Program-made: the position numbers and the translations under genes
IMG/VR virus record: IMGVR_UViG_3300028591_000079
Span: 1 to 64,000 of that record
From: a virus
Taxonomy: Duplodnaviria > Caudoviricetes
Strand: one strand, 5' to 3'
DNA length: 64,000 nt
Shown: positions 8,717 to 40,078 of the stretch, one piece after another
Layout: every line of letters begins with the position of its first letter
Position numbering within the stretch: position 1 is the stretch's first letter
Notes under the pieces: generated by a model
Databases searched by the model: none
Seen by the model: the letters and a program-made list of their open reading frames with translations, nothing else
Told to the model about the DNA's origin: nothing

Positions 8717-8727
8717 GGCTATACCTC

Positions 8728-9021: not shown

Positions 9022-9035
9022 CTTAATGTGTGTTT

Positions 9036-9644
9036 TTAGTCTGTTATTTCAATTATTACACGTCCATTTTTTATAGCTGGATCTAATATTTTCATAAATT
9101 TATCAAAACACTTTCTGGAATTATATACCCAACTTTTTGTTTGGCTTATTTTAGGACTATCACCAAGGATTAAACATCCAAAAGTATCATCTTTATGGTT
9201 TCCAGTGTGTATTCTAATTCCTTCATATAATGGTACGTTTAATATTTCAGGAAGTTTTTTCTTAAATGCATTTGAGTAAGAAATAATAACACGATAAGTT
9301 CCATAAGGTATAGCTGTTTCTCCATATATTTTTTTGAAATTTTCTTTTTTTGTGCCTTTTGGATTTCTTACTTTATCTTCTAATGTATTACAAACAAATT
9401 CTAAAACATCTGGAGATTCTGGATAGCTTACATATAAATCACCAATTGTATCACTCTCGTTGAATATTTTTCTTTTTACTGTTATTTTTAGTGCCCAATC
9501 TACATTTTCTTTTTTTTCTTCAACCACTTTATTCTCCTTAGATGTTTCTTTATTTTCTTTATTATCAGCAACAATATTAGGGACATTATTATCTTTCTTT
9601 TTTTGAAACAATGAGGTTATGAATGTTAATACAGTTTTCCACAT
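9036..9644 (-). CDS. DUF5675-family protein (putative cell-wall/lysis enzyme)
   Basis: TIGDLY...CNTLED...GETAIPYGTY...GIRIHTGN...DTFGCLILG signature. Confidence 0.75.
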   Translation of the reverse strand: MWKTVLTFITSLFQKKKDNNVPNIVADNKENKETSKENKVVEEKKENVDWALKITVKRKIFNESDTIGDLYVSYPESPDVLEFVCNTLEDKVRNPKGTKKENFKKIYGETAIPYGTYRVIISYSNAFKKKLPEILNVPLYEGIRIHTGNHKDDTFGCLILGDSPKISQTKSWVYNSRKCFDKFMKILDPAIKNGRVIIEITD

Positions 9645-19200: not shown

Positions 19201-20548
19201 GATTTTTCCAAACATAAGTTGCTTGCCCACAATCATAAACAACAACATATCCATTTTCTAACATAAGCTCATCATTGTTTTCTCCTTTTTGATGCTCTGT
19301 GTATTGATTATCATTATGAAGTTGGCTAAACCCCCTTTGTCTTAATAAATTATCTGTTATATGTCTTTTGGTTTTCATATTATACCAATGTCTGGATGGT
19401 TTTTGATATGATATAGCTTTAAATTCAAGATCAATATAAGTTTTTCCACTAAATTTTGATTTGTCGCAGTATGATATAATTGATTTTGGATTATAAGTTT
19501 TTATAAAGTAATCAAACATTTTCTTTGTTCCACCCATAACAGTATATTTATCACAATAACACAACCTTAATAATTCCCATTCTATATTTTTATTATATCT
19601 AGGTAAACCAAAAACCATCAACCCTATTAACTCATTATTATAAAACAGTCCTATTGATTTTTTTATTCCTCTACATGTATTTTGTATATGATATGTATTC
19701 AAAAAATTGTTTACTATATTTATATCATCAATTTCTTTTATTTGACATAATCTTCCACCAATACCTGTTTTAGGACTCAACATTTTTTTTATTTTTTCTT
19801 CTTCATCCCAATCCCAAATATGAAAACACTCAAAACCATGCTTATTTGCAACACATGTTTTTTTTATATGATATGTTGGATCTTTGGGGTCTTTACCAAA
19901 TATACTATATGTAGAGTTATGTGTTTCTGTTGGGTTTATTTCTATCAATGTTTGTCCAATTTTCAAATCAAAAGAAAAACCATCAATAGCAAATTCTAAA
20001 TCTTCTTCTGGTACGTTTAGTAGGTTTTGCCAATATCTATTCTTTTTTGAAATTGTTATGTGATTATTTGCTTCTGGCCTTAAACAATTCCAATCAACGC
20101 CATATTTATCTCTACATGATTGTCTTATTTTTTCTAGTATATCTGGATTTTTCATTGCGTTTTTTGTTGCAACAGATATATGTTCCCGATTTTCTTTGGT
20201 CATCATTTTTTTCATTATTTCAGAGTGTTTTTGTAATAATTCTGGATTAGACCAAGCCTTTTTTTGTATTTGAGATTGTTTTTCTTTTTTTTCATCTGTC
20301 CATGCATTTTTTACAGCCATAATCATTTTTTCTTTTTCTTCTGTGGACATTTTGCGCCCTTTGTTCCAGGCCGGTGTTCCTTTTCTACTTGCACTTATTT
20401 TTGCTTTTTGTTCTTCACTTTTTTTCATAATACCATGTTCTTTGTTGTATTTGGTTGAACAATCTCTACAGCAAAATTTAGATGTTTTTCTTTCTGGGTG
20501 AAATAATTTACCACAATTTAAGCATTCAATATTTTCTTTTTTTTTCAT
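19187..20548 (-). CDS. Hef-like free-standing homing endonuclease with Zn-finger/NUMOD3 repeats
   Basis: CxxC...CCxxC, KKSEEQKAKIS...AWNKG, KYGV, FDLKI...LIEIN...HIWDWD, WELLRLC...ISYCDKSKFSG. Confidence 0.7.
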   Translation of the reverse strand: MKKKENIECLNCGKLFHPERKTSKFCCRDCSTKYNKEHGIMKKSEEQKAKISASRKGTPAWNKGRKMSTEEKEKMIMAVKNAWTDEKKEKQSQIQKKAWSNPELLQKHSEIMKKMMTKENREHISVATKNAMKNPDILEKIRQSCRDKYGVDWNCLRPEANNHITISKKNRYWQNLLNVPEEDLEFAIDGFSFDLKIGQTLIEINPTETHNSTYSIFGKDPKDPTYHIKKTCVANKHGFECFHIWDWDEEEKIKKMLSPKTGIGGRLCQIKEIDDINIVNNFLNTYHIQNTCRGIKKSIGLFYNNELIGLMVFGLPRYNKNIEWELLRLCYCDKYTVMGGTKKMFDYFIKTYNPKSIISYCDKSKFSGKTYIDLEFKAISYQKPSRHWYNMKTKRHITDNLLRQRGFSQLHNDNQYTEHQKGENNDELMLENGYVVVYDCGQATYVWKNPNNV

Positions 20549-20669: not shown

Positions 20670-22229
20670 TTATGCAACGTTGAAGTTTGTGATAGCACCC
20701 TTGACCAAGTATTTTGGTTGGTTGATGAACAAATCATAGAATGACAAGCATCCTTTATGATTTTTCAAGTTTGGTGCTTGGAATGTTGGAGTGAAGTATA
20801 ATGGAACCCATTCTGCTACGATCACACCAGCATCACCGATTTGATAACCCTTGAACCCGAAGATAACTTCGTCTTCTGCTAATGGGTTGTTAGCGCCAGC
20901 TGTATAAGGAACTGCGATAACGGAGATTGTACCGTCACGTAATGTACCTGCCAAATATGGACCAACTGGTTTCTTTGCTTCTGGAGCTGCTTTGAAGCCT
21001 TCGATTTGTTCGACAACTGTCAAACCTGTAGTTGCTGAAACGATCATATAGTCGACAGCACCACGGCCCATAGCTTTTTGGATTAAACCACGAGCTGTTG
21101 AAACCATAACGTCATAAGAACCATAACGTTGTTTCAAAGTCAAGTTTGTACCATTTGCTGAGCAGTCGAATGTCAATTCTGGTTGTGCAGCTGCTGCTGT
21201 GGAAACTTTCTTGATCAATGCCAAGTCACGTTCCCAACGGATTGTGCCAGCCAATTCATTGGAGATCAATTCGTCAACATCCAATGCCATGTGAGCGTTA
21301 GCAACCAATGCTGAAGCTACTGAGTATGAGCTCATCAATGGGTGTTCTTCTGCACGGACTGGTTGTTCCAAGATATCGAATTCAACTGTACGGATTGTGT
21401 CATCGTTGATTTCTGTATCACGAGCTGCTTGAGCTGTAACTGTTGCACCTGCTGCGATAGCATCTGCAAAATATGTTGCATCCAAGTTCAATGTGATAGC
21501 ACCTGTTGCATAATCTACAACTGATGTATTCAAAACGCCCTTACCAGCAATTTGGCCTGTGCCAAAGTCACGAGCAATTTCTTTACCACCAATGAATACA
21601 CGGATGGAACCTGCACGTACTGCGTAGTTTGCAGTTGGAATTGAGGAACCAGATTCTTCGAATGGAAGACCGCCGTCTTTATTCAATGTTAAATTAACAG
21701 AAGCTGCTGCTGTAGCTGGATTATAAACATACCATTCAGAAGCATAAGAACCATCTGTTGCTTTTTCGAAGATAATATCGCCTGCTGCAACACCTGCTGC
21801 TGACATACCATAGCGAGATTTGATAACGAAAATTTCGCCTGTTTGACGATCCAAAGCTTGGATGTCTGCGATGTGATGAGCAACCATTTGAGGATAGAAG
21901 ATGTTAACGATATCAACAACGCGTGGAGTCAAAGAAGCGACACCTGGCATCAAAGATGCTGTAGCTGATGTGACATCTTCTGTCAACAAGCCTTTATAAC
22001 CTGCGGATTCATACAAAGCTGCAGTGTTATTCAAGACGTTTGTTAAGACAGCTGCTTGATATTTATCTGCTTTGTTTTGAGATTCGAACATAGCAGCCAT
22101 TTTTGGGCAGCGTTTTGCCAAGCCAGATTCTGTAAACAATTTAGCTGCTTTAGCAATGCGGCCTTCTTTTTTTGCAGAAGCTTCAACCATAGATGCTGCT
22201 TCTGTCATTACTTTTTTTACTAATGCCAT
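20670..22229 (-). CDS. Major capsid protein (T4 gp23-like, HK97 fold)
   Basis: IADIQALDRQTGEIFVIKSRY, PVRAEEHPLMSSYS...HMALDVDELISNELAGTI, GPYLAGTL, GFKG...DAGVIVAEWVPL; strong codon bias; AAGGA RBS. Confidence 0.88.
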   Translation of the reverse strand: MALVKKVMTEAASMVEASAKKEGRIAKAAKLFTESGLAKRCPKMAAMFESQNKADKYQAAVLTNVLNNTAALYESAGYKGLLTEDVTSATASLMPGVASLTPRVVDIVNIFYPQMVAHHIADIQALDRQTGEIFVIKSRYGMSAAGVAAGDIIFEKATDGSYASEWYVYNPATAAASVNLTLNKDGGLPFEESGSSIPTANYAVRAGSIRVFIGGKEIARDFGTGQIAGKGVLNTSVVDYATGAITLNLDATYFADAIAAGATVTAQAARDTEINDDTIRTVEFDILEQPVRAEEHPLMSSYSVASALVANAHMALDVDELISNELAGTIRWERDLALIKKVSTAAAAQPELTFDCSANGTNLTLKQRYGSYDVMVSTARGLIQKAMGRGAVDYMIVSATTGLTVVEQIEGFKAAPEAKKPVGPYLAGTLRDGTISVIAVPYTAGANNPLAEDEVIFGFKGYQIGDAGVIVAEWVPLYFTPTFQAPNLKNHKGCLSFYDLFINQPKYLVKGAITNFNVA

Positions 22230-24390: not shown

Positions 24391-25053
24391 ATGTCGACAA
24401 TTGAACAAGGGGTTATAAATATGAAAGAAGATAGTTTGAAACATACAGTTGGCCAAGTAAGTGGTGATAAAGCCAATATTTGTTTTATTACTGCATATAG
24501 GCCAAATCAAACAACAGAGGAAAATGAAGCTGCGAATAAAGATTTGGAGCGTGATATTCGTAGATTGGGATGTGGTTTTACTAAAACGATAGGCGGTTTT
24601 CAATACAGTACTGGTGGGGTTGGTGAAGAACCTGGATTCAAAGTTGGTGTAAAAGAAAAAGACCCTCAAAGATTTATAGATGAAATGTTGGCACTTGGAC
24701 AAAAATATGGTCAAGAATCTGTACTTATTAAAGTTCCAGGTAAGAAAGCCGCATATTATAACACATCTGATAATTTTGGTAATATAGATATTGAATTTGA
24801 TAAAGTAAGCAATGCAAATCCACAAGACTTATCTACTTGGTCTGTTGGTTATACACAAATGAAAAAAGATAAAAATAAAAATCCAACAAAAGCGTTTAAA
24901 TTGGAGGATATAGAAAAATTGACAACACTTACAGAAGAAGAAGAAAATAATCTACCAGAAGAAAACAATAGATTTGGTGGGCGTAATTTCAGTTCATCTT
25001 CTGGATGGATTGTATATAGATTGTTTAGAGAAGGTTTAGGATTAGAACCATAA
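24391..25053 (+). CDS. DUF3293-like conserved phage protein
   Basis: FITAYRP...EENEAANKDL...LGQKYGQESVL. Confidence 0.55.
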   Translation: MSTIEQGVINMKEDSLKHTVGQVSGDKANICFITAYRPNQTTEENEAANKDLERDIRRLGCGFTKTIGGFQYSTGGVGEEPGFKVGVKEKDPQRFIDEMLALGQKYGQESVLIKVPGKKAAYYNTSDNFGNIDIEFDKVSNANPQDLSTWSVGYTQMKKDKNKNPTKAFKLEDIEKLTTLTEEEENNLPEENNRFGGRNFSSSSGWIVYRLFREGLGLEP

Positions 25054-27018: not shown

Positions 27019-27963
27019 ATGAAGAAGATTTACGAGTTTCTACTTTGGAATAATTGTGGTAATAACTGTAGTTTCTGTCATCAAAGAATGCATGAAAGAA
27101 AAATTGATGATAAAATACTAACCCCAAAGGAACAAGTTGAGTCTTTAAAGTTATGTAAAAAGTTTTTGGACACAGAGTTTGAAAACGGAAATCATATACT
27201 GTTAGTTGGCGGTGAAATATTTGATGTAAGGGATGAAGAAGTAAAGAAATCGTTGAAGTGGTTATTGTTGCGAGTTGTGGAAAAAATGACACTGAACGAA
27301 ATTGAACTTTTATATCTAAACACCAACTTATTATATGAAGATACTGGTTTATTGCATTGGTTTTTAGATGTTATAGAAGCCAATAGACTGTTTGATAGAT
27401 TACACTTTACGACCTCTTATGATATAGTTGGTCGTTTTTGCGTAAAATCAGAGTCTTTGTTTTATAAAAATCTAAAAACTCTAACAGACAAATATAAAGA
27501 CATACACATAATCGTAAACACCATATTAACAAAAGAAGCGTGTAAAAGAATATGTGAAGATCGTTTTGGTGCTGATTTTTTACTTGATTATCTAAAAAAA
27601 CAAGGAAAAGAAAATCACACACTAAAAGAATGGGCAGATTATTTTAGAGTTCAGATCAATACAATACCATATATAATGCTGAACTATGATAAGGCACCAG
27701 AAGCACCAACACGTAATGAGGTTTTTGATACATTAATACACTTAGATACAATTATTCCTGGGTACCTAAAACAATATGCAGAAAACATAGCTCTAACTCA
27801 GGAAAAATTACTTTACGAATACCACAAGAAAGATGGAGGATATGTTTTTTGTTCTTCAAATATGTCTGATTGTGGTCATTCTGTAAATTTCAAATTATCT
27901 TTTGCGGATAGTGACAAATGCTTTCCGTGCGAGATAAAAAAGTTGCTAAAATATAATAAATAA
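27019..27963 (+). CDS. Radical SAM protein (paralog 1)
   Basis: WNNCGNNCSFC (CxxxCxxC), LVGGE, TSYDIVGRF, C-terminal CGHS...DSDKCFPC. Confidence 0.85.
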   Translation: MKKIYEFLLWNNCGNNCSFCHQRMHERKIDDKILTPKEQVESLKLCKKFLDTEFENGNHILLVGGEIFDVRDEEVKKSLKWLLLRVVEKMTLNEIELLYLNTNLLYEDTGLLHWFLDVIEANRLFDRLHFTTSYDIVGRFCVKSESLFYKNLKTLTDKYKDIHIIVNTILTKEACKRICEDRFGADFLLDYLKKQGKENHTLKEWADYFRVQINTIPYIMLNYDKAPEAPTRNEVFDTLIHLDTIIPGYLKQYAENIALTQEKLLYEYHKKDGGYVFCSSNMSDCGHSVNFKLSFADSDKCFPCEIKKLLKYNK

Positions 27964-27968
27964 AAAGG

Positions 27969-28703
27969 ATGAAAAATATGGAACCTATTGAATTGACTTT
28001 TGATAATAATACTGTTATTGAAGATTTATTTAAAGATCTTGAAAATGGAAAACAGCGCATTATTAATGTGCAAGAAAATACTAGCTTAGAAAAAATAAAA
28101 GAATTATTGAAAAGTGTTTCTGGGTTGCCAAATTCTGCTTTTAAGTTTTTCGATATTAGGTTAAAAGCACTATCATCCGAAGATAAAGCGGAAATCTTGA
28201 AATTCGTAATCAAAGAAGAATTGTGTATTACAAATCTTATTGAAACCATTGTATTATTAATCAACTCAAGCAACAATTATAATCAAGAATTTTTCAACAA
28301 TCCAGTTGTGTTTTTCTCTTCTGTTGTTGATTATCTTGATGTTTGTGATGCATTAGAAACAGAAATAAACACAGTTAGAGAAAAAGTTGCATTTTACTTT
28401 TTAGCAACAATGAAATCTTATGTGAATCACCCAAGATTTGTTTTGAACGAATCTGGTAATTTTGAAACAATGCCAATGATGTATGAATGCATTTTGATGT
28501 TGTTGGACTTCTTCAATATTTCATTTATATTAAATACTCCAAACATCAATATTCCAAGTTTTTCAGAAATTCCAAACAATATGAAATCAGAAATCAAATT
28601 ATTAGATTTGTGGACTGATAAACAAAAATTTGTAGTATCAACATTGTCAGAATTATCAAAAACAATCAATGAAAAATTAGCAGCCGAAGTAGAGGACAAA
28701 TAA
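27969..28703 (+). CDS. Hypothetical protein within the rSAM operon
   Basis: RBS, contiguous ORF, no recognised motif. Confidence 0.65.
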   Translation: MKNMEPIELTFDNNTVIEDLFKDLENGKQRIINVQENTSLEKIKELLKSVSGLPNSAFKFFDIRLKALSSEDKAEILKFVIKEELCITNLIETIVLLINSSNNYNQEFFNNPVVFFSSVVDYLDVCDALETEINTVREKVAFYFLATMKSYVNHPRFVLNESGNFETMPMMYECILMLLDFFNISFILNTPNINIPSFSEIPNNMKSEIKLLDLWTDKQKFVVSTLSELSKTINEKLAAEVEDK

Positions 28704-29221
28704 TGACAGATAAAGAAAAACAGCAATTTTTCAATGGTCTTGTTGAAAAAATGGGGACAACACCTCATTGGACTGCAACTGGGTTTATTTTGCCTGACGG
28801 CACAATGTTGAATTTTTCTAACACAAACATATATCCAGATCCAGCTGTTGCTGTATATACCCACGAGGATCTTGAAAAATTCTTTGGTTATAAACAAGAA
28901 GATGTTTTAAAATATGGTGGAATAAGGGTCGGATACTGTGATGCAAATGACAAACCATTTATTCAAATATTGTTCAAAGATTGTGAACCAACGGATTTTC
29001 AGTGGACAAAAATAGACGAATTATTGCATACCGACACTGGAGAATTAGATGTTGAAGCAAATACAATTTTAAATAATGACTCTACAGCTTTTTACAAAAA
29101 GTATGTAGCATCAACAAACACCATAGATGACATAAAAGATGATTTAGATGCCTATTTAGATGGTGATACAACTAATTTGGGTACATATAGTGAAAAATTA
29201 GGAATAAAAGATTCAAACTAA
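28703..29221 (+). CDS. Conserved phage hypothetical protein (GFILPDG motif)
   Basis: TGFILPDGTML...HEDL...GGIRV. Confidence 0.6.
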   Translation: MTDKEKQQFFNGLVEKMGTTPHWTATGFILPDGTMLNFSNTNIYPDPAVAVYTHEDLEKFFGYKQEDVLKYGGIRVGYCDANDKPFIQILFKDCEPTDFQWTKIDELLHTDTGELDVEANTILNNDSTAFYKKYVASTNTIDDIKDDLDAYLDGDTTNLGTYSEKLGIKDSN

Positions 29222-29232
29222 GAAGGAATGTT

Positions 29233-29895
29233 ATGGCAAATTATACGATAACATATGGAACACTAAAACAGCAAGTGATCAATTTGATAAAAGCAAATGT
29301 GCAAAATATTGATCAACTAAATGTTCCAAATACATTAAAAACACCATATGCATATACAATTGCGGGTGGTGGAACCCAAAACGGTTGTCAACTGGTTGCT
29401 ACAGGACTTGATTTACCAATACAATATTCTACGGAACAATTAGAAACTGATTTTAATAATTTTTGTACAACATATGGTATAAACAGTAAATCATCAGATG
29501 TCGTAACCACAAATGGACTGTTGAATTTTTATAATATAGTGGCAAATTTTGTTGCTTCTCGTGTTGTAGAATATACAGGTCTTCATGCCGCAGGAGGAGA
29601 ACAAAGAGTTATGATTTATACACAAACAAGAGGCGCTGGACAATATCCAACTCCACACACACTTGTTTCTGCGGATGATACTGAATTGGCTATTGCAAAT
29701 TCTACTGGCGATGTCGTAAATACATTAACAACAATTATGAAGAAAAATGTATCAGTAAACAATCCTGCACACTACGAAATTAGCATTTGGAGTTGTTCAT
29801 GTTCTTCATCTTCATCTAGTAGTTCATCATCAAGTTCATCATCATCAAGTTCTAGCTCAAGTATATTTATAGCATATCAAAATATCGAGGTATAA
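29233..29895 (+). CDS. Poly-Ser-tailed protein 1 (candidate modified precursor/virion protein)
   Basis: Ends SCSC-S20-IFIAYQNIEV; paralog of the next gene (ITYGxLKxxV, FNxxxxxxG, LLNFYN). Confidence 0.8.
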   Translation: MANYTITYGTLKQQVINLIKANVQNIDQLNVPNTLKTPYAYTIAGGGTQNGCQLVATGLDLPIQYSTEQLETDFNNFCTTYGINSKSSDVVTTNGLLNFYNIVANFVASRVVEYTGLHAAGGEQRVMIYTQTRGAGQYPTPHTLVSADDTELAIANSTGDVVNTLTTIMKKNVSVNNPAHYEISIWSCSCSSSSSSSSSSSSSSSSSSSSIFIAYQNIEV

Positions 29896-29897
29896 TT

Positions 29898-30554
29898 ATG
29901 GCAATTGCAACAAATAATATTATTACATATGGCGACCTAAAAGATTTGGTTTTATCAAAAATAAATTCGCTTGTGAAAAATGTTGGTGGTTATGCCAGTG
30001 GTGTTCCAAACGAAATGAAACCTGGTTTTACACAAACAATAACAAGAGATAGGTCATCTGTTGTTATAAATGTTGATGCAAACACAATTATTTCAACAGT
30101 TACATCTGCAGAAATTGCAAATCAATTTAATGATTATTTGGTACAAAAAGGTGTTTCTGCTGCTGCAAATACGGTAATGACTGCAACCAGTTTATTGAAT
30201 TTCTATAATGTTGCTGCTGCATTTATTACGACAAAAGTTGTTATGGTTACATCATATTTATCTTCAACAACGGTGCCAATGTATAATAAAAACTCAACGA
30301 ATTGGCCAACAGTTCCAGTTATTTCGGCAATTGATCCGGATGCAATACCTACCACTATAGATAATCAAAATGTTCAAAACGCCATGCAATTTTTGGAAAT
30401 GTTTGATAGATCCAGATTGAGTGCTCATATTATGGCTTACACATATAATTATACTTGTTCTAGTTCATCATCCTCATCTTCTAGTTCAAGTTCTTCGTCA
30501 AGTTCTTCAAGTTCATCATCAAGCTCATTTATTGCTTATATGACCCTTGAATAA
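29898..30554 (+). CDS. Poly-Ser-tailed protein 2
   Basis: Ends TC-S23-FIAYMTLE; mixed Ser codons. Confidence 0.8.
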   Translation: MAIATNNIITYGDLKDLVLSKINSLVKNVGGYASGVPNEMKPGFTQTITRDRSSVVINVDANTIISTVTSAEIANQFNDYLVQKGVSAAANTVMTATSLLNFYNVAAAFITTKVVMVTSYLSSTTVPMYNKNSTNWPTVPVISAIDPDAIPTTIDNQNVQNAMQFLEMFDRSRLSAHIMAYTYNYTCSSSSSSSSSSSSSSSSSSSSSSSFIAYMTLE

Positions 30555-30579
30555 AAAACAAAAAAGAAAGGAGATGTTT

Positions 30580-31560
30580 ATGGGTAAGATGGTACAATAT
30601 GGTTTGTGGCCAGATTGCAGTAATAATTGTGATTTTTGTCTTTTAGAGCATCATGGTAGAAAAACATCGAAAGAAGACAAAATATTACAGCTTGATGATA
30701 CTATTGCAAATATCAAAACAATAGATTGGATTAATGAATTTTCAGATGGTATTTCGCTTTTGGGTGGCGAGATTTATTTTATGCGTGATCCAGATCTTCA
30801 AGCAAAATTTTTAGAAGTCATTGATACGATTATAGAGTATGTGTTGTTACCAAATAAGAATAATGGAAATATGAAATGTCGTTATTCTACTGTAACAAAC
30901 GGAATTTATGATCGTACTTTTTTATTTCAAGTATTAGATAAAATAGTTGAAGCTGTTGGTATTCATTTTGTAGATATAAATTTCTCTTATGATTTGAAAT
31001 ATCGTTTTCATACAGAAGCCGCTCGTCAATTGTGTATAGATAATATTAATGCCGTGATTCAAAAATATAATTATGAATTAGGTGTGCAGATGATATTAAC
31101 ACAAAATTTGATAGATTCTGTGAAAAGTGGTGAGTTTGATATAGACAAATTTGAGAATGAAACATGCCCAGGAAGTAAGTTGTGCTTATTATATCCTCAT
31201 CCTGTTCATGGTGGTAAAGTTCTTCCAGGATTTCAATTTGCAAGACAACCATTTTTGAGTTTTTTATTAGAAGAGTATCCAAAGCACAATAGGTTGATTA
31301 GAGATTTTATTTTTTCACTTTATCATTCTGGTATTTATAAATATTCTGGCATGTATTGGAAACGACATATTGGGGATGATGGATATTTTTATGAGAAAGG
31401 TGAAACATCGCAACCACCAATTTTATCAGATGGAAAAGAAGTATTGATGGATTGTGGGCATAGTGTGTTGTATAAATGTTATTCTGATTCTGACAAGTGC
31501 TGTTTATGTGATGTAAAGAATATATTTAAGCAAGAAATATTGGAGTTGAATAATGAGTAG
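30580..31560 (+). CDS. Radical SAM protein (paralog 2)
   Basis: WPDCSNNCDFC, LLGGE, STVTNG, SYDLKYRF, CGHSVLYKCYSDSDKCCLC; AAGGAG RBS before 30580. Confidence 0.85.
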   Translation: MGKMVQYGLWPDCSNNCDFCLLEHHGRKTSKEDKILQLDDTIANIKTIDWINEFSDGISLLGGEIYFMRDPDLQAKFLEVIDTIIEYVLLPNKNNGNMKCRYSTVTNGIYDRTFLFQVLDKIVEAVGIHFVDINFSYDLKYRFHTEAARQLCIDNINAVIQKYNYELGVQMILTQNLIDSVKSGEFDIDKFENETCPGSKLCLLYPHPVHGGKVLPGFQFARQPFLSFLLEEYPKHNRLIRDFIFSLYHSGIYKYSGMYWKRHIGDDGYFYEKGETSQPPILSDGKEVLMDCGHSVLYKCYSDSDKCCLCDVKNIFKQEILELNNE

Positions 31561-32479
31561 AGTTCAATATGGTATTTGGCCTAATTGTTGTAATGCTTGT
31601 GATTTTTGTTTGAATCTACGAGAGGCTTTTTATGGTGTAGAAGAACAGATAAACATGATTAAGAACGTTAGACATAATATCAGACTTCTTGATTGGAAAA
31701 ACACTTATTATCATGGTATTTCTTTGTTGGGTGGCGAATTATATTTTGTAAAAGATAAAGGTATACAAGAAGAATTTTTAGGTCTTATAGATGACATTAT
31801 AGAATTAGTTGTTTGTAAAGAAAATGGTCCACTATGTAAATATTCAACCGTTACTAATGGACTTTATGATCCAGAGTTTTTATTCAAAGTATTAGATAAA
31901 TTTGAAGAAAAAGGGTTGATGAGTGCTGTTGATTTGAATTTCAGTTATGATTTGAAGTATAGATTTAAAACAGAAGAAAGAAAAAAATTGTGTGAAGATA
32001 ATATAGTAAAGACGGTTGAAAGGTATCCAGATCTAAAAGTGAATGTACAAATGATTTTAACACAGCACCTTATCAATGAATACAATAAAAATAACAACAT
32101 ATTGAAAGAATTAGAAGAAAAACTGCATATTGAATCTATAAATCTTCTTTTCCCACACAAACACAACACTGGAAAGACTCTTGTTGATTTTTATTTGAAG
32201 AGAAGTGATTTTTTGAAGTTTTTATATGAGCTAAATAATACAGATCATAAAAAAGTAAGACAGTTTGTGGATAGTATTGTAAATGTGGATGATAATGCTT
32301 TAATTGGACTTTATAGAAGAGATAAAATTGAAAAAAATGAAATAAACATAGACCAATTACCAATGAAGGAAGATAATAAAACCGTAATAAATCCAAAATG
32401 CGGACACTCAACATTATATCAGTGCTATGAAGACTCTGATAAGTGTATGTTTTGTGATATAAGAAAGTTTCAGTGCTAA
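31553..32479 (+). CDS. Radical SAM protein (paralog 3)
   Basis: WPNCCNACDFC, LLGGE, CGHSTLYQCYEDSDKCMFC. Confidence 0.85.
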   Translation: MSRVQYGIWPNCCNACDFCLNLREAFYGVEEQINMIKNVRHNIRLLDWKNTYYHGISLLGGELYFVKDKGIQEEFLGLIDDIIELVVCKENGPLCKYSTVTNGLYDPEFLFKVLDKFEEKGLMSAVDLNFSYDLKYRFKTEERKKLCEDNIVKTVERYPDLKVNVQMILTQHLINEYNKNNNILKELEEKLHIESINLLFPHKHNTGKTLVDFYLKRSDFLKFLYELNNTDHKKVRQFVDSIVNVDDNALIGLYRRDKIEKNEINIDQLPMKEDNKTVINPKCGHSTLYQCYEDSDKCMFCDIRKFQC

Positions 32480-32499
32480 TCATCTAAAAGGAGGAGGAA

Positions 32500-33630
32500 A
32501 TGATACCACTATTTAAAGTTTTTATGGCAGATTCAGTAGATAAGCCATTATTAGAAACACTTCATTCTGGTTTTATTGGTGAAGGTCCAAAAGTACTAGA
32601 ATTTGAAGAAACACTTAAAAAACATCTTAAAACAGAAAATGTATTAACTACTAATTCTGGTACTTCTGCATTATATCTTATTTATCATATGATAAAACAT
32701 CCAAAAACTTCACATGTGTTGCGAAAAACAATTATAACAACACCCATAACTTGTACGGCAACAAATAATCCAATTGTTCTAAATGATATAGACATTGCTT
32801 GGGCTGATGTTGATCCAATTACGGGAAACATTACTCCAGAATCGTTACTGGAAGCGCTGATGATAGAGCCAAATGGATATGCTTACAACACCCAGGGTGT
32901 ATCTATAGTTCATTGGGGTGGAAATCCTTGTGATATAGAGGATATAGCTAAAATATCACATTCTTATGGTCTAAAACTTATAGAAGATGGTGCGCATTCA
33001 TTTGGTATGGAATATAATGGAAAACCTTTTGGATATTATTCAGATTTTGCTATGCACTCATTTCAAGCAATAAAGCATATAACTGCGGGGGATGGTGGTT
33101 GTTTAATATGTAAAAATAAGGATGATTATGAAAGAGCCAAGCTATTAAGATGGTATGGTATAGATAGAGAAATAAAAGAAGGCATAGATCTAAGATGCGA
33201 ATTAGACATTGCTGAAGCTGGATATAAATTTCACATGAATGATTTAGCGGCAACAATTGGTAATGAAAATTTTAAATATCTACCACAAATATTACAAAAG
33301 CATAGAGATAATGCAAAATTTTATGACAAAGCATTTGAGGGAAAAGTAAAATATGCACCAGAAAATCCAAATGGTAAATCAGCTTATTGGTTATATACTA
33401 TTCATGCCGAAAATAGAGATGAATTGATGCAAAAACTAAAAGAAAAAGGTATTATGGCATCAAAGGTACACTCAAGAAATGACACTCATAGTATGTTTAA
33501 GAGTTTTCAAAGACCATTGCCAGGAGTAGAAGAATTCAATCGTACCCATCTTTGTATTCCTGTTGGTTGGTGGGTTACAGAAGAAGATCGTGAATATATT
33601 GCAGAACAGGTGATAAAATATGCAAGATAA
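32500..33630 (+). CDS. DegT/DnrJ/EryC1/StrS PLP-dependent sugar aminotransferase
   Basis: NSGTSAL, ADVDP, VHWGG, IEDGAHSFG, SFQAIKHITAGDGG, GYKFHMND. Confidence 0.9.
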   Translation: MIPLFKVFMADSVDKPLLETLHSGFIGEGPKVLEFEETLKKHLKTENVLTTNSGTSALYLIYHMIKHPKTSHVLRKTIITTPITCTATNNPIVLNDIDIAWADVDPITGNITPESLLEALMIEPNGYAYNTQGVSIVHWGGNPCDIEDIAKISHSYGLKLIEDGAHSFGMEYNGKPFGYYSDFAMHSFQAIKHITAGDGGCLICKNKDDYERAKLLRWYGIDREIKEGIDLRCELDIAEAGYKFHMNDLAATIGNENFKYLPQILQKHRDNAKFYDKAFEGKVKYAPENPNGKSAYWLYTIHAENRDELMQKLKEKGIMASKVHSRNDTHSMFKSFQRPLPGVEEFNRTHLCIPVGWWVTEEDREYIAEQVIKYAR

Positions 33631-34459
33631 ACCAAAACTTTCAATTGTAGCCGGTATTTATTTTCCTCTAGAGATTTGTTTTAGAAGGTTTTTGGATGCG
33701 TGTCTTAGTCAAACAATAAAAGATGTTGAATTTATATTTCTATTAGATTCGCCTGAAGATAAACAATCAAGAAATATATTAGAAGAGTATAAAGACCTAT
33801 TGGATAACCGCTTTATAATTGTAGAAAATGAAAAAAATTTAGGGGTTGTTGATACATATTTGAAAGGTTGTGAGTTATCTAAAAGTGATTGTGTTATGAT
33901 AGTTGACTCAGATGATTTTTTTGATAATGACCTAATTGAAAAGATGTATAATTATTTTATTGAGCATGGTTTAGATTTTTTAGGCCCTAGAATATTGATG
34001 AGTTATCTTGGTGAATTAGATGTTTTTTATGCCTTAAACAATAACGATGATCCAACAGATACAGGAATAATGTTTAGAAAGAAGATTTTGGGTGAATATG
34101 AGGAATTTAGAAAATATATCAATTACACACTTATAAATACAATAAAAAAGACCAATTACAAAGTTGATGTTTTACCGTTAGATTTTGAAAGTTTTTATTA
34201 TTATACAGTCACCAATAGAAGTGCAACAAGTAGTTTTATATTACAAGACAACGGTGAAGTTCCCAAAAGCAAAGACTATCAATATTATAAAGATGGTGTG
34301 ATTAGATTTATAGAGACATTTTTGAGCAATACAACAAATAAAAAGATCAAATTTGAAGATTATACATTAGATGAATTGAAAGATATGGCAAAAAAGTATC
34401 TTGATTTAGACAATTTATTAGAAAACGACCTAACCTGTGAAGAGCTAAAAAAAATCTGA
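33620..34459 (+). CDS. GT2-family glycosyltransferase
   Basis: LSIV...CLSQT...ENEKNLG...IVDSDDF (DxD). Confidence 0.8.
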   Translation: MQDKPKLSIVAGIYFPLEICFRRFLDACLSQTIKDVEFIFLLDSPEDKQSRNILEEYKDLLDNRFIIVENEKNLGVVDTYLKGCELSKSDCVMIVDSDDFFDNDLIEKMYNYFIEHGLDFLGPRILMSYLGELDVFYALNNNDDPTDTGIMFRKKILGEYEEFRKYINYTLINTIKKTNYKVDVLPLDFESFYYYTVTNRSATSSFILQDNGEVPKSKDYQYYKDGVIRFIETFLSNTTNKKIKFEDYTLDELKDMAKKYLDLDNLLENDLTCEELKKI

Positions 34460-34812
34460 TGAATGAATATTATAATATCTTAAAAGAAAATCATAAAAAC
34501 ATAAAATACCATCCTGGTTTTGATATGCTAGTTATTAAGTGTACAAATATAAAAGAACAATTGACAGGCCTAAAAAAGATTGTAAAAACGCTCATATTTG
34601 GTATTCAATCTAAAAAAATAAACAAAAATTCGATTATAATAGAGATTAATGGTGAAGATTTTATTAAAGATGATATTATAATACTACTAAACATTATGAA
34701 ACTCACTAAAACGTCTCATTATTTCAATATAGTGGTCAAAAACGGATTAGATAGTAGGATAGAGTTTATAAGATGCAAATATAGAGGAGTAAAAATAAAT
34801 GAAGGGATATAA
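34459..34812 (+). CDS. Hypothetical protein coupled to GT2 (related to 36045..36527)
   Basis: TGATG overlap; LKKIVKTLIFGIQSKKI vs LKKLINMTLYMIQTKKL. Confidence 0.55.
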   Translation: MNEYYNILKENHKNIKYHPGFDMLVIKCTNIKEQLTGLKKIVKTLIFGIQSKKINKNSIIIEINGEDFIKDDIIILLNIMKLTKTSHYFNIVVKNGLDSRIEFIRCKYRGVKINEGI

Positions 34813-35209
34813 AGTAATAGATTTTGAAGTGCACCCAGATGAGAGAGGAAAATTGACTGCTGTATCTGAAATGAAAGAGATACCGTTTGAGATAAAAAGA
34901 ATATACTACACATGGGATATGCCAAAAGAAGCAATTAGGGGAGGACATGCACACAAGGTTTTAGATGAAGTAATGATTTGTTTGCGTGGTTCTTGTGATT
35001 TTGTGTTAGATGATGGAAAAGAAAAAATTACAATCACACTAGACAGACCAAACAAGGGATTATATGTGTCAGCTCATTTATGGAGACATTTTACTAATTT
35101 TTCTCCAGACTGCGTTGTTATGTTGATTGCCTCAGACTATTTTCACCCAGAAGATCATGTAAAAGATTATAATGAGTTTTTAAAGCTAAGAGCAGAAGAT
35201 GAAGAATAA
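34799..35209 (+). CDS. fdtA: FdtA/QdtA-family dTDP-4-keto-6-deoxyhexose 3,4-ketoisomerase (cupin)
   Basis: DERGKL...IPFEIKRIYY...RGGHAHK...GSCDFVLDDG...LDRPNKGLYV...W...FSPDCV...AS. Confidence 0.88.
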   Translation: MKGYKVIDFEVHPDERGKLTAVSEMKEIPFEIKRIYYTWDMPKEAIRGGHAHKVLDEVMICLRGSCDFVLDDGKEKITITLDRPNKGLYVSAHLWRHFTNFSPDCVVMLIASDYFHPEDHVKDYNEFLKLRAEDEE

Positions 35210-36044
35210 TATAAAAATTTCTGTTATTACTGGAGTTTATCATCCGAATGAGTCTTTATTTCGGAAGTTTTTATATTCCTGCTTAAATCAAACTCTAGAT
35301 GGAATACAATTTATTATGGTTTTTGATGATCCAGAAGATAAAAATTCTAGAAGCATAATAAAAGAACACCAAGAACAAATAGATAATAACAAAAATACTT
35401 TTACGATACTAGAAAATAATAAAAACTTGGGAATATATGAAACACAAATGAAAGGATTGAAAAACGCATTGGGTGAATATATTGTGTTTTTTGATGATGA
35501 TGATTTTTTTGATTTTGAATATTTAGAGATAATGTACAAATATGCTAAAGAGTTTGATGCAAATGTCATAAAAGGCTGGGCATTGACTCATTATTTTGGA
35601 GATATAGATTTGAATTTTACTTTTATATGTCAACACGAAAATATATTCAATGAAGACGATTGGTTATATATGTACAAAAAAGATTTCTTCGTTAATTATT
35701 TCTATTATTCTAAAATGTACACTTCTGATACGGCAATAACAAACAGATCAAAAGAAAAAGAAATAATATTACAAATTCCATTTTATGAGGGTGTATTTTA
35801 TCATTATGTTAGGCACTGTGATAATACATCTTTTGTTCCAATTACAGAAGAAAATTTTAGCATCAGCAACAGTGAGGGTGTGGAAGATCAAAGAAGAATA
35901 TATGAAAGGTTTATGAAGGATGTAAAAGAAGAGTTTGATATAGAAAAAACAAACAAGCAAAAACTAACGACTATTTTACAAAATCATTTAAGACTAGATA
36001 ATACATCAAACGACTATAATTTTGAAAGACTGAAAGGATTATAA
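35199..36044 (+). CDS. GT2-family glycosyltransferase (paralog of 33620)
   Basis: ISVI...CLNQT...ENNKNLG...GEYIVFFDDDDF. Confidence 0.82.
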   Translation: MKNNIKISVITGVYHPNESLFRKFLYSCLNQTLDGIQFIMVFDDPEDKNSRSIIKEHQEQIDNNKNTFTILENNKNLGIYETQMKGLKNALGEYIVFFDDDDFFDFEYLEIMYKYAKEFDANVIKGWALTHYFGDIDLNFTFICQHENIFNEDDWLYMYKKDFFVNYFYYSKMYTSDTAITNRSKEKEIILQIPFYEGVFYHYVRHCDNTSFVPITEENFSISNSEGVEDQRRIYERFMKDVKEEFDIEKTNKQKLTTILQNHLRLDNTSNDYNFERLKGL

Positions 36045-36527
36045 ATGAACATAGGTATAGATATTTATAAAAACAGTCTTCATTTATCTAATCAACAGGC
36101 TATAAGTATAATAAAAAGAGCTCGTTATATGTTATCTGGACTGCAAACACAAAAAGAAGATATTATTGGATTTAATTTTGGTGGCATATTTACAAAAGAA
36201 GAAAAAGTATTGTTAGAGCTAAAAAAACTAATCAATATGACACTATACATGATACAAACAAAAAAATTAGATGGGATAGTATTATATATAGATGAATTGA
36301 TTGATAAAGAAGAATTTAGAAATATAATAGATCTTGCTAAATTTTCTGGTATAACAAACAGATTAAAAATAAAAACTAAAAGCATTAAAGATAAAGATTT
36401 TTTAATGTATTATCCTGAATTAAAAGTTGAAATTATTGAAAAAGATGATACAATATTCAGTAAAAGATATGTATTAGATCAAAAGGAAGAGTTTATTTGC
36501 AAATTATATGAAAATGGAGAAAAATAA
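36045..36527 (+). CDS. Hypothetical protein, possibly a Cys-less rSAM-derived fragment
   Basis: QKEDIIGFNFGGIF resembles QKYDFEGFGIIGGEFF of paralog 7. Confidence 0.5.
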   Translation: MNIGIDIYKNSLHLSNQQAISIIKRARYMLSGLQTQKEDIIGFNFGGIFTKEEKVLLELKKLINMTLYMIQTKKLDGIVLYIDELIDKEEFRNIIDLAKFSGITNRLKIKTKSIKDKDFLMYYPELKVEIIEKDDTIFSKRYVLDQKEEFICKLYENGEK

Positions 36528-37474
36528 TGCAGTTAGATAGTAGGTTTTTGCAATTAGTTTTATGGGTAGATTGTAATAGTCATTGTGCTTTTTGTTTGAA
36601 TCGAAGAGGATTAATGAATAAAGACTTTCACGAAGATAAGATAGAAAATATACATAAAGCCTTAGAAATAGTAAAAAACATAAAACAGGGACAGTATGAT
36701 TTTGTTGGTATTATCGGTGGCGAATTTTTTCAAGGACAAATAACGGAAGAAGTTGCACCACATTATCAAGAACTAGTAGATGAAATAAAAAGCAAAATTG
36801 ATAAAGGATATATAAAAAAATTGTTTGTGGCCAGTTCTTTGATGGGTCCGGATAATTATAATGAGTTTCAGAAATATTTTAGTGCATTTGATAGGTCTGA
36901 AATATTAATCTGTACATCATATAATACTTGGGGACAGTTTGGTTTTTTCCCTGAATCTAATTGGCAAGAAAACTACAAAAAATTTACAGATAATGGGTAC
37001 CAACTGCACATTGAAATTATAGCATCAGAAGCAAATCTAAATGCAATACTTGAAGGAAAATTGAATTTACTTCCTTGGGTTAGAAACAATATTAGAATAG
37101 ACTTCCTTAGACCAATTGATTTCCTAAATGAACCAAAACAAAAATTTCCATGCTTCTTTCCAAAACGAGAAACATTCATAAAATTCATGATGTTCTTAGA
37201 AGTCAATTTCCCGCAAATGATGGATGACTTCATGAGTCTAAAACAAAGAGCTTCGTTGCTACATAACTTTACATTTGATCAAACAGTAGAAAGAAAAGAA
37301 GAGTTTAACGAAGGTGAAGGTTATATAATGGATTGTGGACACTCTAGTTTATTTAAGGCATATATAGATTCAGATCATTGTATGGCTTGTGATATTTTGG
37401 CTTTTTATAAACGAAACAAATATAGAACAGTTGACAAAGATTTACCACAGGAGAAGAAAGATGGCAATGAATAA
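36527..37474 (+). CDS. Radical SAM protein (paralog 4)
   Basis: WVDCNSHCAFC, IIGGEFFQGQ, CTSYNT, CGHSSLFKAYIDSDHCMAC. Confidence 0.85.
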   Translation: MQLDSRFLQLVLWVDCNSHCAFCLNRRGLMNKDFHEDKIENIHKALEIVKNIKQGQYDFVGIIGGEFFQGQITEEVAPHYQELVDEIKSKIDKGYIKKLFVASSLMGPDNYNEFQKYFSAFDRSEILICTSYNTWGQFGFFPESNWQENYKKFTDNGYQLHIEIIASEANLNAILEGKLNLLPWVRNNIRIDFLRPIDFLNEPKQKFPCFFPKRETFIKFMMFLEVNFPQMMDDFMSLKQRASLLHNFTFDQTVERKEEFNEGEGYIMDCGHSSLFKAYIDSDHCMACDILAFYKRNKYRTVDKDLPQEKKDGNE

Positions 37475-38459
37475 AAGAATAATACAATATGAAGTTTGGA
37501 AGGAGTGCCATAATCACTGTAAATTTTGTTTTTTGAAAGATGATATACTTCACACTCCTGATCATGTAAAATTGGGTGGTATAAAAAACGCCATAAATCA
37601 AATCACAGATGATATAAACAATAAAAGAATAGATGGTGTAGGTATTATTGGTGGAGATTTTTGGCAAGGTGAAATTACAACAGAAGAAATAAGAACAGAA
37701 TTTTTCAAACTTATAGATTTATGTTTCAATTATCTAAAAAACGGAGACATAAGTGAAGTTTGGTTATCTGCAACATTAACATTAGGAGCTCAAGAAGATT
37801 TATATAGGGCTCTTGATATGTATAATGAAATGATTCCAGATGAAGAAAAAGAAGATAAAAGACTTTGGATCTGCACTTCTTATGATACAATTGGAAGGTT
37901 TCATATACCAGCAATGTTAGAAAACTGGGAATATCACATGAAGAATATTGGCGAAAAGTATCCAAAAGTCTTTAAAAACACATCATTTATTATAACCAAC
38001 GATCTAGTAAAGAAAACATTATCTGGCGAATTTGATTTTATAAAGTTTGAAGAAGAATTTGGAACCAATGTATATATGAAAACCCCATCACACATTTACG
38101 AAGATTGGGAAGAAGGTAAGAAGAAATTTCAAGAGACGGTGGGTGATTTCTTTTTAGAGCGCAAACCAACTATTGAATTCTTACAAAAGCTAAACGAGGT
38201 GTCTCCAGAGTTGTTGAACAAAATAATGAACAATGACTTAAGGGCTAATGTTTTGGTTGGACACAGTAATGATGGGAATTTTGATGTAATGATAAGAGAC
38301 CAAGAAGACCATCATAAAAATATTAGTGTGGCAACTGGCGGAGAAAACACTGAAAAAGCTCAAATAATGGCCTGTGGACACGAAAAACAGTATAAGTGCT
38401 ATATAGACTCAGACAAGTGTTTTATGTGCGATCTACAACGATTATTCAAGGTATTATAG
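37461..38459 (+). CDS. Radical SAM protein (paralog 5)
   Basis: WKECHNHCKFC, IIGGDFWQGE, CTSYDTIGRFH, CGHEKQYKCYIDSDKCFMC; start at 37461 or 37467. Confidence 0.85.
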   Translation: MAMNKRIIQYEVWKECHNHCKFCFLKDDILHTPDHVKLGGIKNAINQITDDINNKRIDGVGIIGGDFWQGEITTEEIRTEFFKLIDLCFNYLKNGDISEVWLSATLTLGAQEDLYRALDMYNEMIPDEEKEDKRLWICTSYDTIGRFHIPAMLENWEYHMKNIGEKYPKVFKNTSFIITNDLVKKTLSGEFDFIKFEEEFGTNVYMKTPSHIYEDWEEGKKKFQETVGDFFLERKPTIEFLQKLNEVSPELLNKIMNNDLRANVLVGHSNDGNFDVMIRDQEDHHKNISVATGGENTEKAQIMACGHEKQYKCYIDSDKCFMCDLQRLFKVL

Positions 38460-38467
38460 GGGGGAAA

Positions 38468-40078
38468 ATGAAAAAATATACTCTATTAGTTGAAGAAGAT
38501 ACAATACATGACAGTGATGTTGTATTGTTAGATGATAAAAAGATATTATGTATACTAGAAAATGAACGTGTAACAAAACATAAGCACGCAGTATATGAAA
38601 AATGTGATGCTATTATAGACTATGTATTGAAACGTTATAATATTGGCAAAGATGAAGTTAATATTGTCAAAGGAATAAATACACAACATAACAGCCATCA
38701 CGAATTACATGCTTTGGCCACATACCTTTCTTCTGGTTATGATAAAGCAAGTATTTTAGTTATAGATGGATATGGAGACCAAGATGATTCTGTGACTTTG
38801 TTTGCAGGGAGAGGTCAAAATATTTACGAATTAAAGAAGTATCACGTAATGTATTCTTTGGGTAATCTTTATAATTGTGCTTCTAGGTTACTCTATGATA
38901 ATGCTGGATATAGTGAAGGTAAGATGATGGGGTTGTCTTGTTGTTCTGAACCTGAATATAGTATACCAAGTCCAATACAATATCATGAAGATGGAACTGT
39001 AGAGTGTATTGCTAAAATAGATGAAAATTGTCCGATAGAAGAAAATATTATGAACTATATAAAGGAACAGTTTTCATATTTGATTGGTAATGATGGCAAT
39101 GTAATGGGTGTTGATATATATAAAGCTAAAATTGCTGCAACTGTTCAATGGTGGTTTACAGAGCAAGTTGTTAATCTGGTCAAATATATCAAAAAGCTAA
39201 ATCCTAACACTGAAAATCTTTGTGTTTGTGGTGGATGTTTTCTAAATTGCGAGACCAATGGAATTATAGACAGACTTGAATTATTCAAAAATATATATTG
39301 TATTCCAGCTCCTGCAGATAATTCAATAGTTTTAGGTAGAGCTCAACAATTTTTGGTAGAAATAGGATCAAAACCACAAACAATAAAAAGTCCATATTGG
39401 GGCCCTGACTCTGATAAAACTTTTGAAGATTTATTGGAAGAATTTAAAATAAAAGAAGTAGATGGTAAATTTAGATCACAAATAACAAATGCTCATGATA
39501 TAAGTAAGTATTCAGAAGATTGGGTTATTGAAAGACTAAAGGCAGATAGGGTTATTTTATGGTTTGATGGTGGTTCTGAATTTGGGCCTCGTGCATTAGG
39601 ACATAGATCGTTTTTAGCCAATCCTGCAACAAATGAAATGTTTTGGAGACTCAGTGTAAAAATCAAAAGTAGAGAAAACTATAGACCACTTGCGCCAATT
39701 ACAACAGATGAGCTATATCCAATGATTTTTGAAGATCCCAATCCAGAAAATCTTACACAATTTATGCTAAAAACAGTAAAAGTAAAAGATGAGTGGAGAT
39801 CTAAACTAAAAGCTGTTACACACATAAATCAAACAGCTCGTCCCCAACGTTTAACTGAAGATGTAAATCCAGTTCTATATTCATTAATAAGCAAATGGTA
39901 TAAAGAATCTGGACTGCCTTGTCTTATAAATACATCTCTAAATCTAAAAGGACAACCATTATTGGAAACATATGACGATTTAAAATCAATTCTTATAAAT
40001 CCTAACATTTTATTGAACAAGTGTAGTGTAGTAATTGATCATAAGTTGTGTTTTGATATTTACGAAGGAGCAGCATAA
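38468..40078 (+). CDS. Carbamoyltransferase (NodU/CmcH/TobZ family)
   Basis: ERVTKHKH, HHELHA, VIDGYGD, EGKMMGL, GGCFLNC, EFGPRALGHRS, RPLAP, TARPQ, INTSLN. Confidence 0.9.
   Translation: MKKYTLLVEEDTIHDSDVVLLDDKKILCILENERVTKHKHAVYEKCDAIIDYVLKRYNIGKDEVNIVKGINTQHNSHHELHALATYLSSGYDKASILVIDGYGDQDDSVTLFAGRGQNIYELKKYHVMYSLGNLYNCASRLLYDNAGYSEGKMMGLSCCSEPEYSIPSPIQYHEDGTVECIAKIDENCPIEENIMNYIKEQFSYLIGNDGNVMGVDIYKAKIAATVQWWFTEQVVNLVKYIKKLNPNTENLCVCGGCFLNCETNGIIDRLELFKNIYCIPAPADNSIVLGRAQQFLVEIGSKPQTIKSPYWGPDSDKTFEDLLEEFKIKEVDGKFRSQITNAHDISKYSEDWVIERLKADRVILWFDGGSEFGPRALGHRSFLANPATNEMFWRLSVKIKSRENYRPLAPITTDELYPMIFEDPNPENLTQFMLKTVKVKDEWRSKLKAVTHINQTARPQRLTEDVNPVLYSLISKWYKESGLPCLINTSLNLKGQPLLETYDDLKSILINPNILLNKCSVVIDHKLCFDIYEGAA

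Follow-up and report, generated by a model that had tools for sequence, protein, structure and literature searches.

Several described systems place radical S-adenosylmethionine (radical-SAM) enzymes beside a substrate made on the ribosome. In the sactipeptides and in the ranthipeptides or SCIFF peptides (CteB, PapB) a Cys-containing substrate is encoded next to a dedicated radical-SAM enzyme, and in one account of thioether-forming maturases the substrate Cys contacts an auxiliary cluster (PMC10177961). The proteusin and epipeptide pathways supply a ribosomal core with several radical-SAM enzymes (PoyB-D, polytheonamide) or with one (YydF/YydG), and anSME and AtsB act on a folded protein, abstracting the C-beta hydrogen of Ser or Cys alike to yield formylglycine. 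RimO, too, modifies a protein, by methylthiolation. Here we describe two phage genes, P0001 and P0002, whose products end in long Ser tracts, together with the cassette of radical-SAM genes around them. They lie in the first 64 kb (hereafter the window) of IMG/VR virus record IMGVR_UViG_3300028591_000079, which measures 231 kb, is ~96% complete according to CheckV and represents an uncultured phage of gut or rumen. We think it probable, though with real reservations, that both proteins are substrates of a new, phage-specific, multi-enzyme radical-SAM maturation cassette. The two genes are:

29233–29895, + strand: tailed protein 1 (P0001), 220 residues; N-domain at residues 1–186, ending WSCSC-S20-IFIAYQNIEV, with the Ser run at 29803–29862.
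29898–30554, + strand: tailed protein 2 (P0002), 218 residues; N-domain, ending YTC-S23-FIAYMTLE, with the Ser run at 30459–30527.

The genes are tandem, adjacent and co-directional, each preceded by a Shine-Dalgarno-like sequence, and their products are paralogs (33% identity over 226 columns, E 2e-10, BLASTP) between which the ITYGxLK, FN and LLNFYN..A.F blocks are invariant. A sequence-only reading of the window had proposed such a pair, with Cys ahead of each tract, a FIAY cap behind it and alignable N-domains, and the paralogy, the positions of the runs and the aligned blocks were all borne out. It had further proposed that the tracts are selected at the protein level, which agrees with the mixture of TCN and AGY codons in both tracts and in all 41 homologous tracts whose DNA was analysed. 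The Ser run of P0001 uses four kinds of codon from both codon boxes (TCA10/AGT5/TCT4/AGC1) and that of P0002 six (TCA10/TCT5/AGT5/TCC1/TCG1/AGC1). Since Tandem Repeats Finder reports only short, imperfect periodicities of 6–15 nt in the runs, these are not simple microsatellites, and with Ser at ~7% a chance origin of a run of 20–23 Ser is excluded.

The architecture of the tail was characterised from 142 distinct tails (N-domain profile matches plus fetched loci, ~3,000 tract positions). The tract varies in length from 8 to 35 residues (median 22) and consists of 84% Ser and 15% Cys, with only 18 residues of any other kind, nine of them Thr. Cys, which the sequence-only reading had overlooked, is thus a regular component of the tract across the family: 140 of the 142 tracts contain one or more, and within the tract Cys is concentrated in the first tenth and depleted toward the end, although the window tracts are nearly Cys-free, with a single Cys in P0002. 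After the tract comes a cap with the consensus x-F-I-[A/G]-[Y/F/W]-M-[K/N/D]-[I/L], supported at individual positions by F at +2 in 116 tails, I at +3 in 117, A/G at +4 in 115, Y/F/W at +5 in 123, M at +6 in 82 and I/L at +8 in 114, and in 83 of the 142 the protein ends exactly at residue +8. Conservation of the FIAY element, as first read from two proteins, therefore extends across the family, and of the anticipated variation in the tract, that in length and in Cys for Ser was found while Thr is nearly absent.

The codons ACY (Thr) and TGY (Cys) are each a single-step bridge between the TCY and AGY codons of Ser. Cys has been kept and Thr excluded despite this equal access, and the composition therefore points to a chemical requirement: it argues for residues with an unbranched beta-carbon bearing OH or SH, rather than for a generic polar linker. 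Pairs of Cys four residues apart are no more frequent than in shuffled tracts (z 0.1). An alpha-helical periodicity of Cys was considered and rejected, the only departures among representatives at 50% identity being a deficit at spacings 3 and 6 and an excess at 11–12.

Both tailed genes lie inside a tight, co-directional block at 27019–43104, which also encodes seven domains of one divergent radical-SAM family (those beginning at 27019, 30580, 31553, 36527, 37461 and 42145, and the C-terminal half of 40079–42145) and a conserved partner:

27019–27963, + strand: radical-SAM group A; CxxxCxxC at residues 13–20, C-terminal CGHS..NFK..C..C; Pfam Radical_SAM E 1.8e-4, phrog_1802 E 5.5e-9.
27969–28703, + strand: protein X, a helical conserved partner of ~230 residues, with no Pfam or PHROG match and without catalytic-looking invariant residues.
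30580–31560, + strand: radical-SAM group B, copy 1; likely start ATG 30580 after AAAGGAG; ends CGHSxLYKCYxDSDKCxLCD.
31553–32479, + strand: radical-SAM group B, copy 2; 42% identity to copy 1.
36527–37474, + strand: radical-SAM group E; Pfam Radical_SAM and Fer4_12; orthologs in 8 of 30 loci tallied.
37461–38459, + strand: radical-SAM group C; Fer4_12; start uncertain (37389–37461).
40079–42145, + strand: MiaB/RimO-like methylthiotransferase (residues ~1–365) fused to radical-SAM group D, which replaces the TRAM domain.
42145–43104, + strand: radical-SAM group F; Pfam Radical_SAM E 1e-3; C-terminal CGH...CxxCD; start uncertain (42094–42145).

The association of these genes with the tail was assessed in both directions. 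For the forward comparison nine independent homolog loci were fetched, eight of them tailed (L003, L004, L005, L007, L009, L010, L011 and L012) and one with a Gly-rich C-terminal part and no tail (L013). Every one of the eight tailed loci encodes protein X and either one or two tailed proteins, in many cases with a tail-less paralog as the next gene downstream, as well as orthologs of groups A (32–44% identity), B (44–51%), C (31–39%) and D, and L013 has no radical-SAM gene nearby. For the reverse comparison a probe from group B alone retrieved 22 IMG/VR loci (on contigs of 16–314 kb) and 10 GTDB loci, and in 28 of these 32 a tailed protein is encoded on the same contig, within the flanks. In two of the others (L017, L042) the contig ends right beside the probe; in L036 N-domain matches occur elsewhere in the assembly (contig C6, ~67 kb; that this is the contig of the probe is not established); and in L044, a fragmented assembly, they occur on other contigs, one with a partial tail. 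No complete counter-example, with the enzymes and without a tailed protein, was found among the 32 group-B loci. In ~40 loci, therefore, tail and radical-SAM genes go together almost without exception, which sustains the earlier suggestion that the tail is tied to its neighbouring enzymes; homologs that retain the enzymes while lacking tract and cap would have spoken against that suggestion, and tail-less paralogs always stand adjacent to a tailed one.

All of the GTDB loci are on contigs of uncultured genomes or metagenome-assembled genomes, with animal-associated sources where these are named (buffalo rumen, rabbit), and several lie on contigs of 245–283 kb resembling whole phage genomes binned with bacteria. 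The cassette carries 3–8 radical-SAM genes across loci. Group A orthologs (32–66% identity) are present in most loci and group C orthologs (30–39%, one to three copies) in 26 of 30. Group B copy 1 is the most conserved enzyme (42–55% across other loci; in L014, the closest relative, its ortholog shares 81% and that of copy 2 shares 72%). A profile of protein X has 33 members in 29 of the first 30 loci, missing only in the end-cut L017, and further members in 7 of the 10 GTDB loci. The cassette adjoins gp23 in the window and in L010, lies amid fibre genes of the Laminin_G type in L005 and L007 and is close to genes for ligase and polymerase in L009; it moves between genome regions as one unit.

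An exhaustive HMMER search among 1.84 billion proteins, using a profile of both N-domains without their tails, matched 236 proteins at E ≤ 1e-3 (80 at E ≤ 1e-10), all of them in uncultured phages or phage-like contigs of metagenome-assembled genomes. The tail is present in 75 of 152 sequences examined (150 listed matches and the two window proteins), and the untailed remainder are mostly contig-end fragments. There is also a tail-less class of complete proteins of 168–198 residues which end exactly at the expected start of the tract, and there are a few longer forms with a Gly-rich C-terminal part, one of which (P0088) matches Pfam Gly_rich_2 (PF21722, E 2.7e-6). With an 80-sequence alignment, AlphaFold2 modelled residues 1–186 of P0001 as an alpha/beta domain (mean predicted local distance difference test score, pLDDT, 80.7), compared to 52–53 for the tract and 62 for the cap; the model built from the two paralogs only was unusable (pLDDT 41). 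Fold prediction had been proposed as a way to place the N-domain, and it yielded a confident model but no recognisable fold relative: no convincing match to the model was found in the PDB with Foldseek (best E 0.74), among 48,161 PDB representatives with VIA-align (best Z 5.7 over 65 residues, to ABC-ATPase helices), in BFVD or in the ESM Atlas (template modelling score, TM, ≤0.35). Pfam and PHROGs searches with the tailed proteins and 80 family members gave nothing consistent.

The Gly-rich fusion and the frequent position among capsid and fibre genes hint at a structural role for the N-domain. The tail might then be a structural tether, with the Ser/Cys tract as a flexible linker or loop, the cap as a beta-strand clasping the N-domain or a neighbouring virion subunit, and the radical-SAM enzymes acting on some other substrate (a nucleic acid, a small molecule or another protein). 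The existence of Gly-rich and tail-less forms and the placement of many cassettes in structural gene regions are consistent with this explanation, as are the pre-tract residues and the cap, both of which look like beta-strands. However, linkers tolerate Gly, Thr, Asn and Pro, which the tract does not, the presence of at least one Cys is nearly universal, and a tether gives no account of why a dedicated set of enzymes accompanies the tail almost without exception; we therefore consider it unlikely.

The folded N-domain also bears on the idea, raised in the sequence-only reading, that the tract is a core peptide. As a released RiPP (ribosomally synthesised and post-translationally modified peptide) or cofactor precursor, the modified tail would be cut off to become a peptide toxin, a signal or a redox cofactor, as with PqqA and MftA. 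The precursor does stand beside several radical-SAM enzymes and a small non-enzymatic partner, protein X, with a possible role in recognition, and the modified element would be C-terminal, as in MftA. However, the 'leader' would be a folded domain of 185 residues, unusually large and with independent homologs that are tail-less or fused to Gly-rich parts, the conserved genes of the cassette include none for a protease, an exporter or other transporter, or immunity, and the phages are of lytic type, T4-like or jumbo. The idea is not supported in this form, and we regard release of the tail as very improbable. A complex prediction of P0001 with protein X gave scores of 0.38, 0.01 and 0.21 and is neutral as evidence.

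Because the tailed family always adjoins its own set of radical-SAM genes, the tail is probably rebuilt chemically by these enzymes, and we infer that it is their substrate. That substrate would have three parts, namely the folded alpha/beta N-domain of ~185 residues, the Ser/Cys tract and the eight-residue hydrophobic C-terminal cap x-F-I-A-Y-M-x-[IL]. The radical-SAM enzymes, of which groups A–D occur everywhere, would take hydrogen from C-alpha or C-beta in the unbranched -CH2-OH and -CH2-SH residues of the tract, which may be rebuilt in repeated rounds of oxidation, epimerisation and/or formation of thioethers. The near-universal Cys and the cap could serve as docking elements; alternatively, the cap may be a beta-strand clasp or the target itself. 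Candidate polymer products are poly-formylglycine, a tract of D-Ser and a thioether-braced tract.

The family of the radical-SAM enzymes is virus-specific in the ESM Atlas, where several named structural neighbours are SPASM-bearing radical-SAM clusters (TM 0.73–0.75); SPASM-bearing radical-SAM enzymes are the peptide-maturase class. They match no Pfam or NCBIfam family beyond the generic Radical_SAM and Fer4_12, and searches against PDB sequences gave no match. The C-terminal motif CGH-x-C-x-DSD-x-C-x2-C (Cx7Cx6Cx2C) weakly resembles zinc ribbons (eS31, E 0.07).

A number of points weigh against a radical-SAM maturation of the tail. The support for a modification is indirect, coming from the family, its tail architecture and the gene linkage. 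Pfam SPASM has no match in the seven window domains or in 7 group-B orthologs, an NCBIfam scan of the cassette enzymes returned viperin-like N-terminal traces and no peptide maturase match, and the C-terminal CGH..C..C..C motif, which could bind Zn or Fe-S, is as much like a zinc ribbon as like an auxiliary Fe-S site. Four to eight enzymes are hard to rationalise for a homopolymeric tract, and the conserved cap could be their true target instead of the tract. Since tail-less paralogs share the cassettes and the N-domain occurs independently, the N-domain has a function of its own, and it is possible that the radical-SAM enzymes have a non-protein substrate.

In addition to these genes, the block in this phage contains accessory genes:

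28703–29221, + strand: phage-specific open reading frame (ORF) of 172 residues between protein X and the first tailed gene, with no homolog in other loci.
32500–36527, + strand: accessory sugar block (DegT, GT2, an ORF of 117 residues, FdtA, GT2, an ORF of 160 residues; Pfam E 4e-68, 1e-18, 6.5e-47 and 7e-19).
32500–33630, + strand: DegT-type aminotransferase of the sugar block.
33620–34459, + strand: GT2 glycosyltransferase of the sugar block.
34799–35209, + strand: FdtA ketoisomerase of the sugar block.
35199–36044, + strand: second GT2 of the sugar block.
38396–40078, + strand: NodU/CmcH-type carbamoyltransferase, accessory; Pfam Carbam_trans_C (E 4e-48) and Carbam_trans_N (E 7e-27), both above their gathering cut-offs, as the class requires; start uncertain.

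With seven radical-SAM domains, the methylthiotransferase fusion, the carbamoyltransferase and the amino-sugar pathway, this is the most elaborate cassette seen. Of the 36 other loci with tailed proteins, 7 have a carbamoyltransferase and 5 a methylthiotransferase (~6 of 37 cassettes including the window), and none has sugar or glycosyltransferase genes. In L014 group E comes straight after group B copy 2, and no gene separates protein X from the first tailed gene (L014 intervals 10875–12478 and 7905–9324). For this reason the 4-kb sugar block and the ORF at 28703–29221 are insertions in this phage, and we take the comparison as evidence that the sugar block is a recent one.

These genes bear directly on the dense glycosylation platform that the sequence-only reading had also considered. 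Under that explanation the poly-Ser would be a mucin-like O-glycosylation site on a virion protein, carrying a 3-amino-3,6-dideoxyhexose made and attached by FdtA, DegT and GT2, while the radical-SAM enzymes would tailor the sugar or be unrelated. Glycosylated virion proteins are known in mycobacteriophages, and some GT2 enzymes, SunS among them, attach sugars to peptides at Ser or Cys; DegT, FdtA, two GT2 and the carbamoyltransferase all fall within the same tight co-directional block, and the window tracts are almost pure Ser. The conserved partners of the tail, however, are radical-SAM enzymes and not glycosyltransferases, and across the family Thr is excluded from the tract and Cys is common in it, unlike in mucin-type sites. 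Because the sugar genes are unique to this phage and inserted, glycosylation could be at most a local add-on, and as an explanation of the tail it is improbable.

With the tail taken as a radical-SAM substrate, the accessory genes would find a place in further decoration. The carbamoyltransferase, GT2 and methylthiotransferase act on -CH2OH, -SH or C-H and therefore fit a Ser/Cys polymer, so that glycosylation or carbamoylation of the matured tract is plausible here as a lineage-specific addition. In this phage the tract would thus probably receive methylthiolation from the MiaB-like fusion, O- or S-carbamoylation from the NodU-type enzyme, and a 3-amino-3,6-dideoxyhexose through FdtA/DegT and the two GT2. 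Tract Cys content shows no correlation with presence of the carbamoyltransferase. It is low (0.04–0.15, compared to a mean of 0.13) in cassettes with a MiaB-like methylthiotransferase (L005, L007, L016, L037, L041 and the window), which hints that sulfur may be installed enzymatically in these, although the sample is small and partly non-independent.

Taken more broadly, it is a real possibility, though one we put forward tentatively, that large phages in anaerobic gut and rumen communities use four or more dedicated radical-SAM enzymes to convert an encoded poly-Ser/Cys tract of their own, possibly virion, protein into a new modified polymer, here also carbamoylated, methylthiolated and decorated with an amino sugar. 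If true, viruses would for the first time be known to possess a radical-SAM system of their own for protein maturation. If the tail is the substrate, a virus-specific radical-SAM family widespread in uncultured gut and rumen jumbo phages would perform an undescribed post-translational chemistry, from which new tools for engineering peptides might come. So simple a substrate, a homopolymer closed by an unvarying cap, is unusual and makes the chemistry directly testable in vitro; as the most elaborate example, the cassette of the window is a good entry point to both the core and the accessory steps.

Some loci show variant arrangements, including a 640-residue protein bearing the same tail (L035:5682-7601), two complete cassettes in tandem in one phage (L030:4686-15463) and four tailed paralogs (L033:2748-8496). 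The tailed homolog at L004:529-1230 matches its database protein only if TGA is read as Trp, and some carriers of the cassette therefore use a recoded stop codon. A family of ~300–350 residues without Pfam or PHROG match lies beside N-domain genes in ~17 loci, including the radical-SAM-less L013, and is absent from the genome of this phage; its members include:

L013:8911-9951
L005:12680-14681
L009:9062-9976
L011:15876-16901
others

The window has a G+C content of ~30% and carries a T4-type major capsid gene (20670–22229, − strand, Pfam Gp23 match), directly adjoined by an ORF of 453 residues (19187–20548, − strand) with a NUMOD3 motif, a DNA-binding motif of homing-endonuclease type. The T4 late-promoter motif TATAAATA showed no enrichment. 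An ORF at 24391–25053 (+ strand), 2 kb upstream of the cassette, matches the family of S-adenosylmethionine lyases (PF23780, E 9e-10), and would thus seem to be at odds over SAM with the cassette beside it and its eight SAM-consuming radical-SAM domains. No match was found among GenBank phages by tblastn with P0001, P0155 and radical-SAM A or by megablast with 12.5 kb, nor by a word-index protein search or by IMG/VR scans with a degenerate FIAYMKI pattern and with P0002 alone. Full-text literature searches likewise found no description of the tailed family or the cassette.

Compared with the systems described at the outset, the cassette shares individual traits with each. It differs from mucin-type and phage virion O-glycosylation platforms in lacking co-conserved glycosyltransferases and in the rarity of Thr (9 of ~3,000 tract residues), and from CXXX-repeat peptides and their TIGR04115 maturase in the lack of an NCBIfam maturase match and of any enrichment for Cys at every fourth position. 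With the proteusins and epipeptides it shares the assignment of radical-SAM enzymes to a ribosomal product, and epimerisation would be a plausible step on a homopolymer; however, the phage proteins have no NHLP or Nif11 leader, the enzymes match neither PoyD nor YydG in NCBIfam or Pfam, and the core is Ser/Cys-only with a C-terminal cap. As in the sactipeptides and ranthipeptides, the Cys-containing substrate is encoded beside its enzymes, and its Cys could dock on an auxiliary cluster, a kind of contact with which the maturase account is concerned. Unlike in those systems, the phage enzymes show at the sequence level neither a SPASM nor a twitch domain, a folded protein of 200–240 residues stands in place of the short leader-core peptide, Ser makes up 84% of a tract that may hold a single Cys, and the phage-encoded cassette has 4–8 enzymes and no protease or exporter.

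The N-terminal half of ORF 40079–42145 has a three-Cys N-terminal region and a radical-SAM core (the three Cys and CxxxCxxC are readable) and is equally similar to RimO and MiaB (PDB matches MiaB 7mjz, E 5e-16, and RimO 4jc0, E 3e-15). It falls below all NCBIfam cut-offs (TIGR00089 E 2e-52, 178 bits compared to a cut-off of 251), and in place of TRAM it carries a second radical-SAM domain, of the cassette family; the same fusion with group D occurs in L005 and L007. The anSME motif (C/S)-x-(P/A)-x-R is absent from the phage tails, which read [SC]n + xFIAYMxI without a Pro/Arg motif, the phage enzymes have no anSME/SPASM sequence match, and anSME modifies one residue and not a run; its action on a folded protein, with Ser and Cys as equivalent targets, nevertheless matches a tract from which Thr is excluded.

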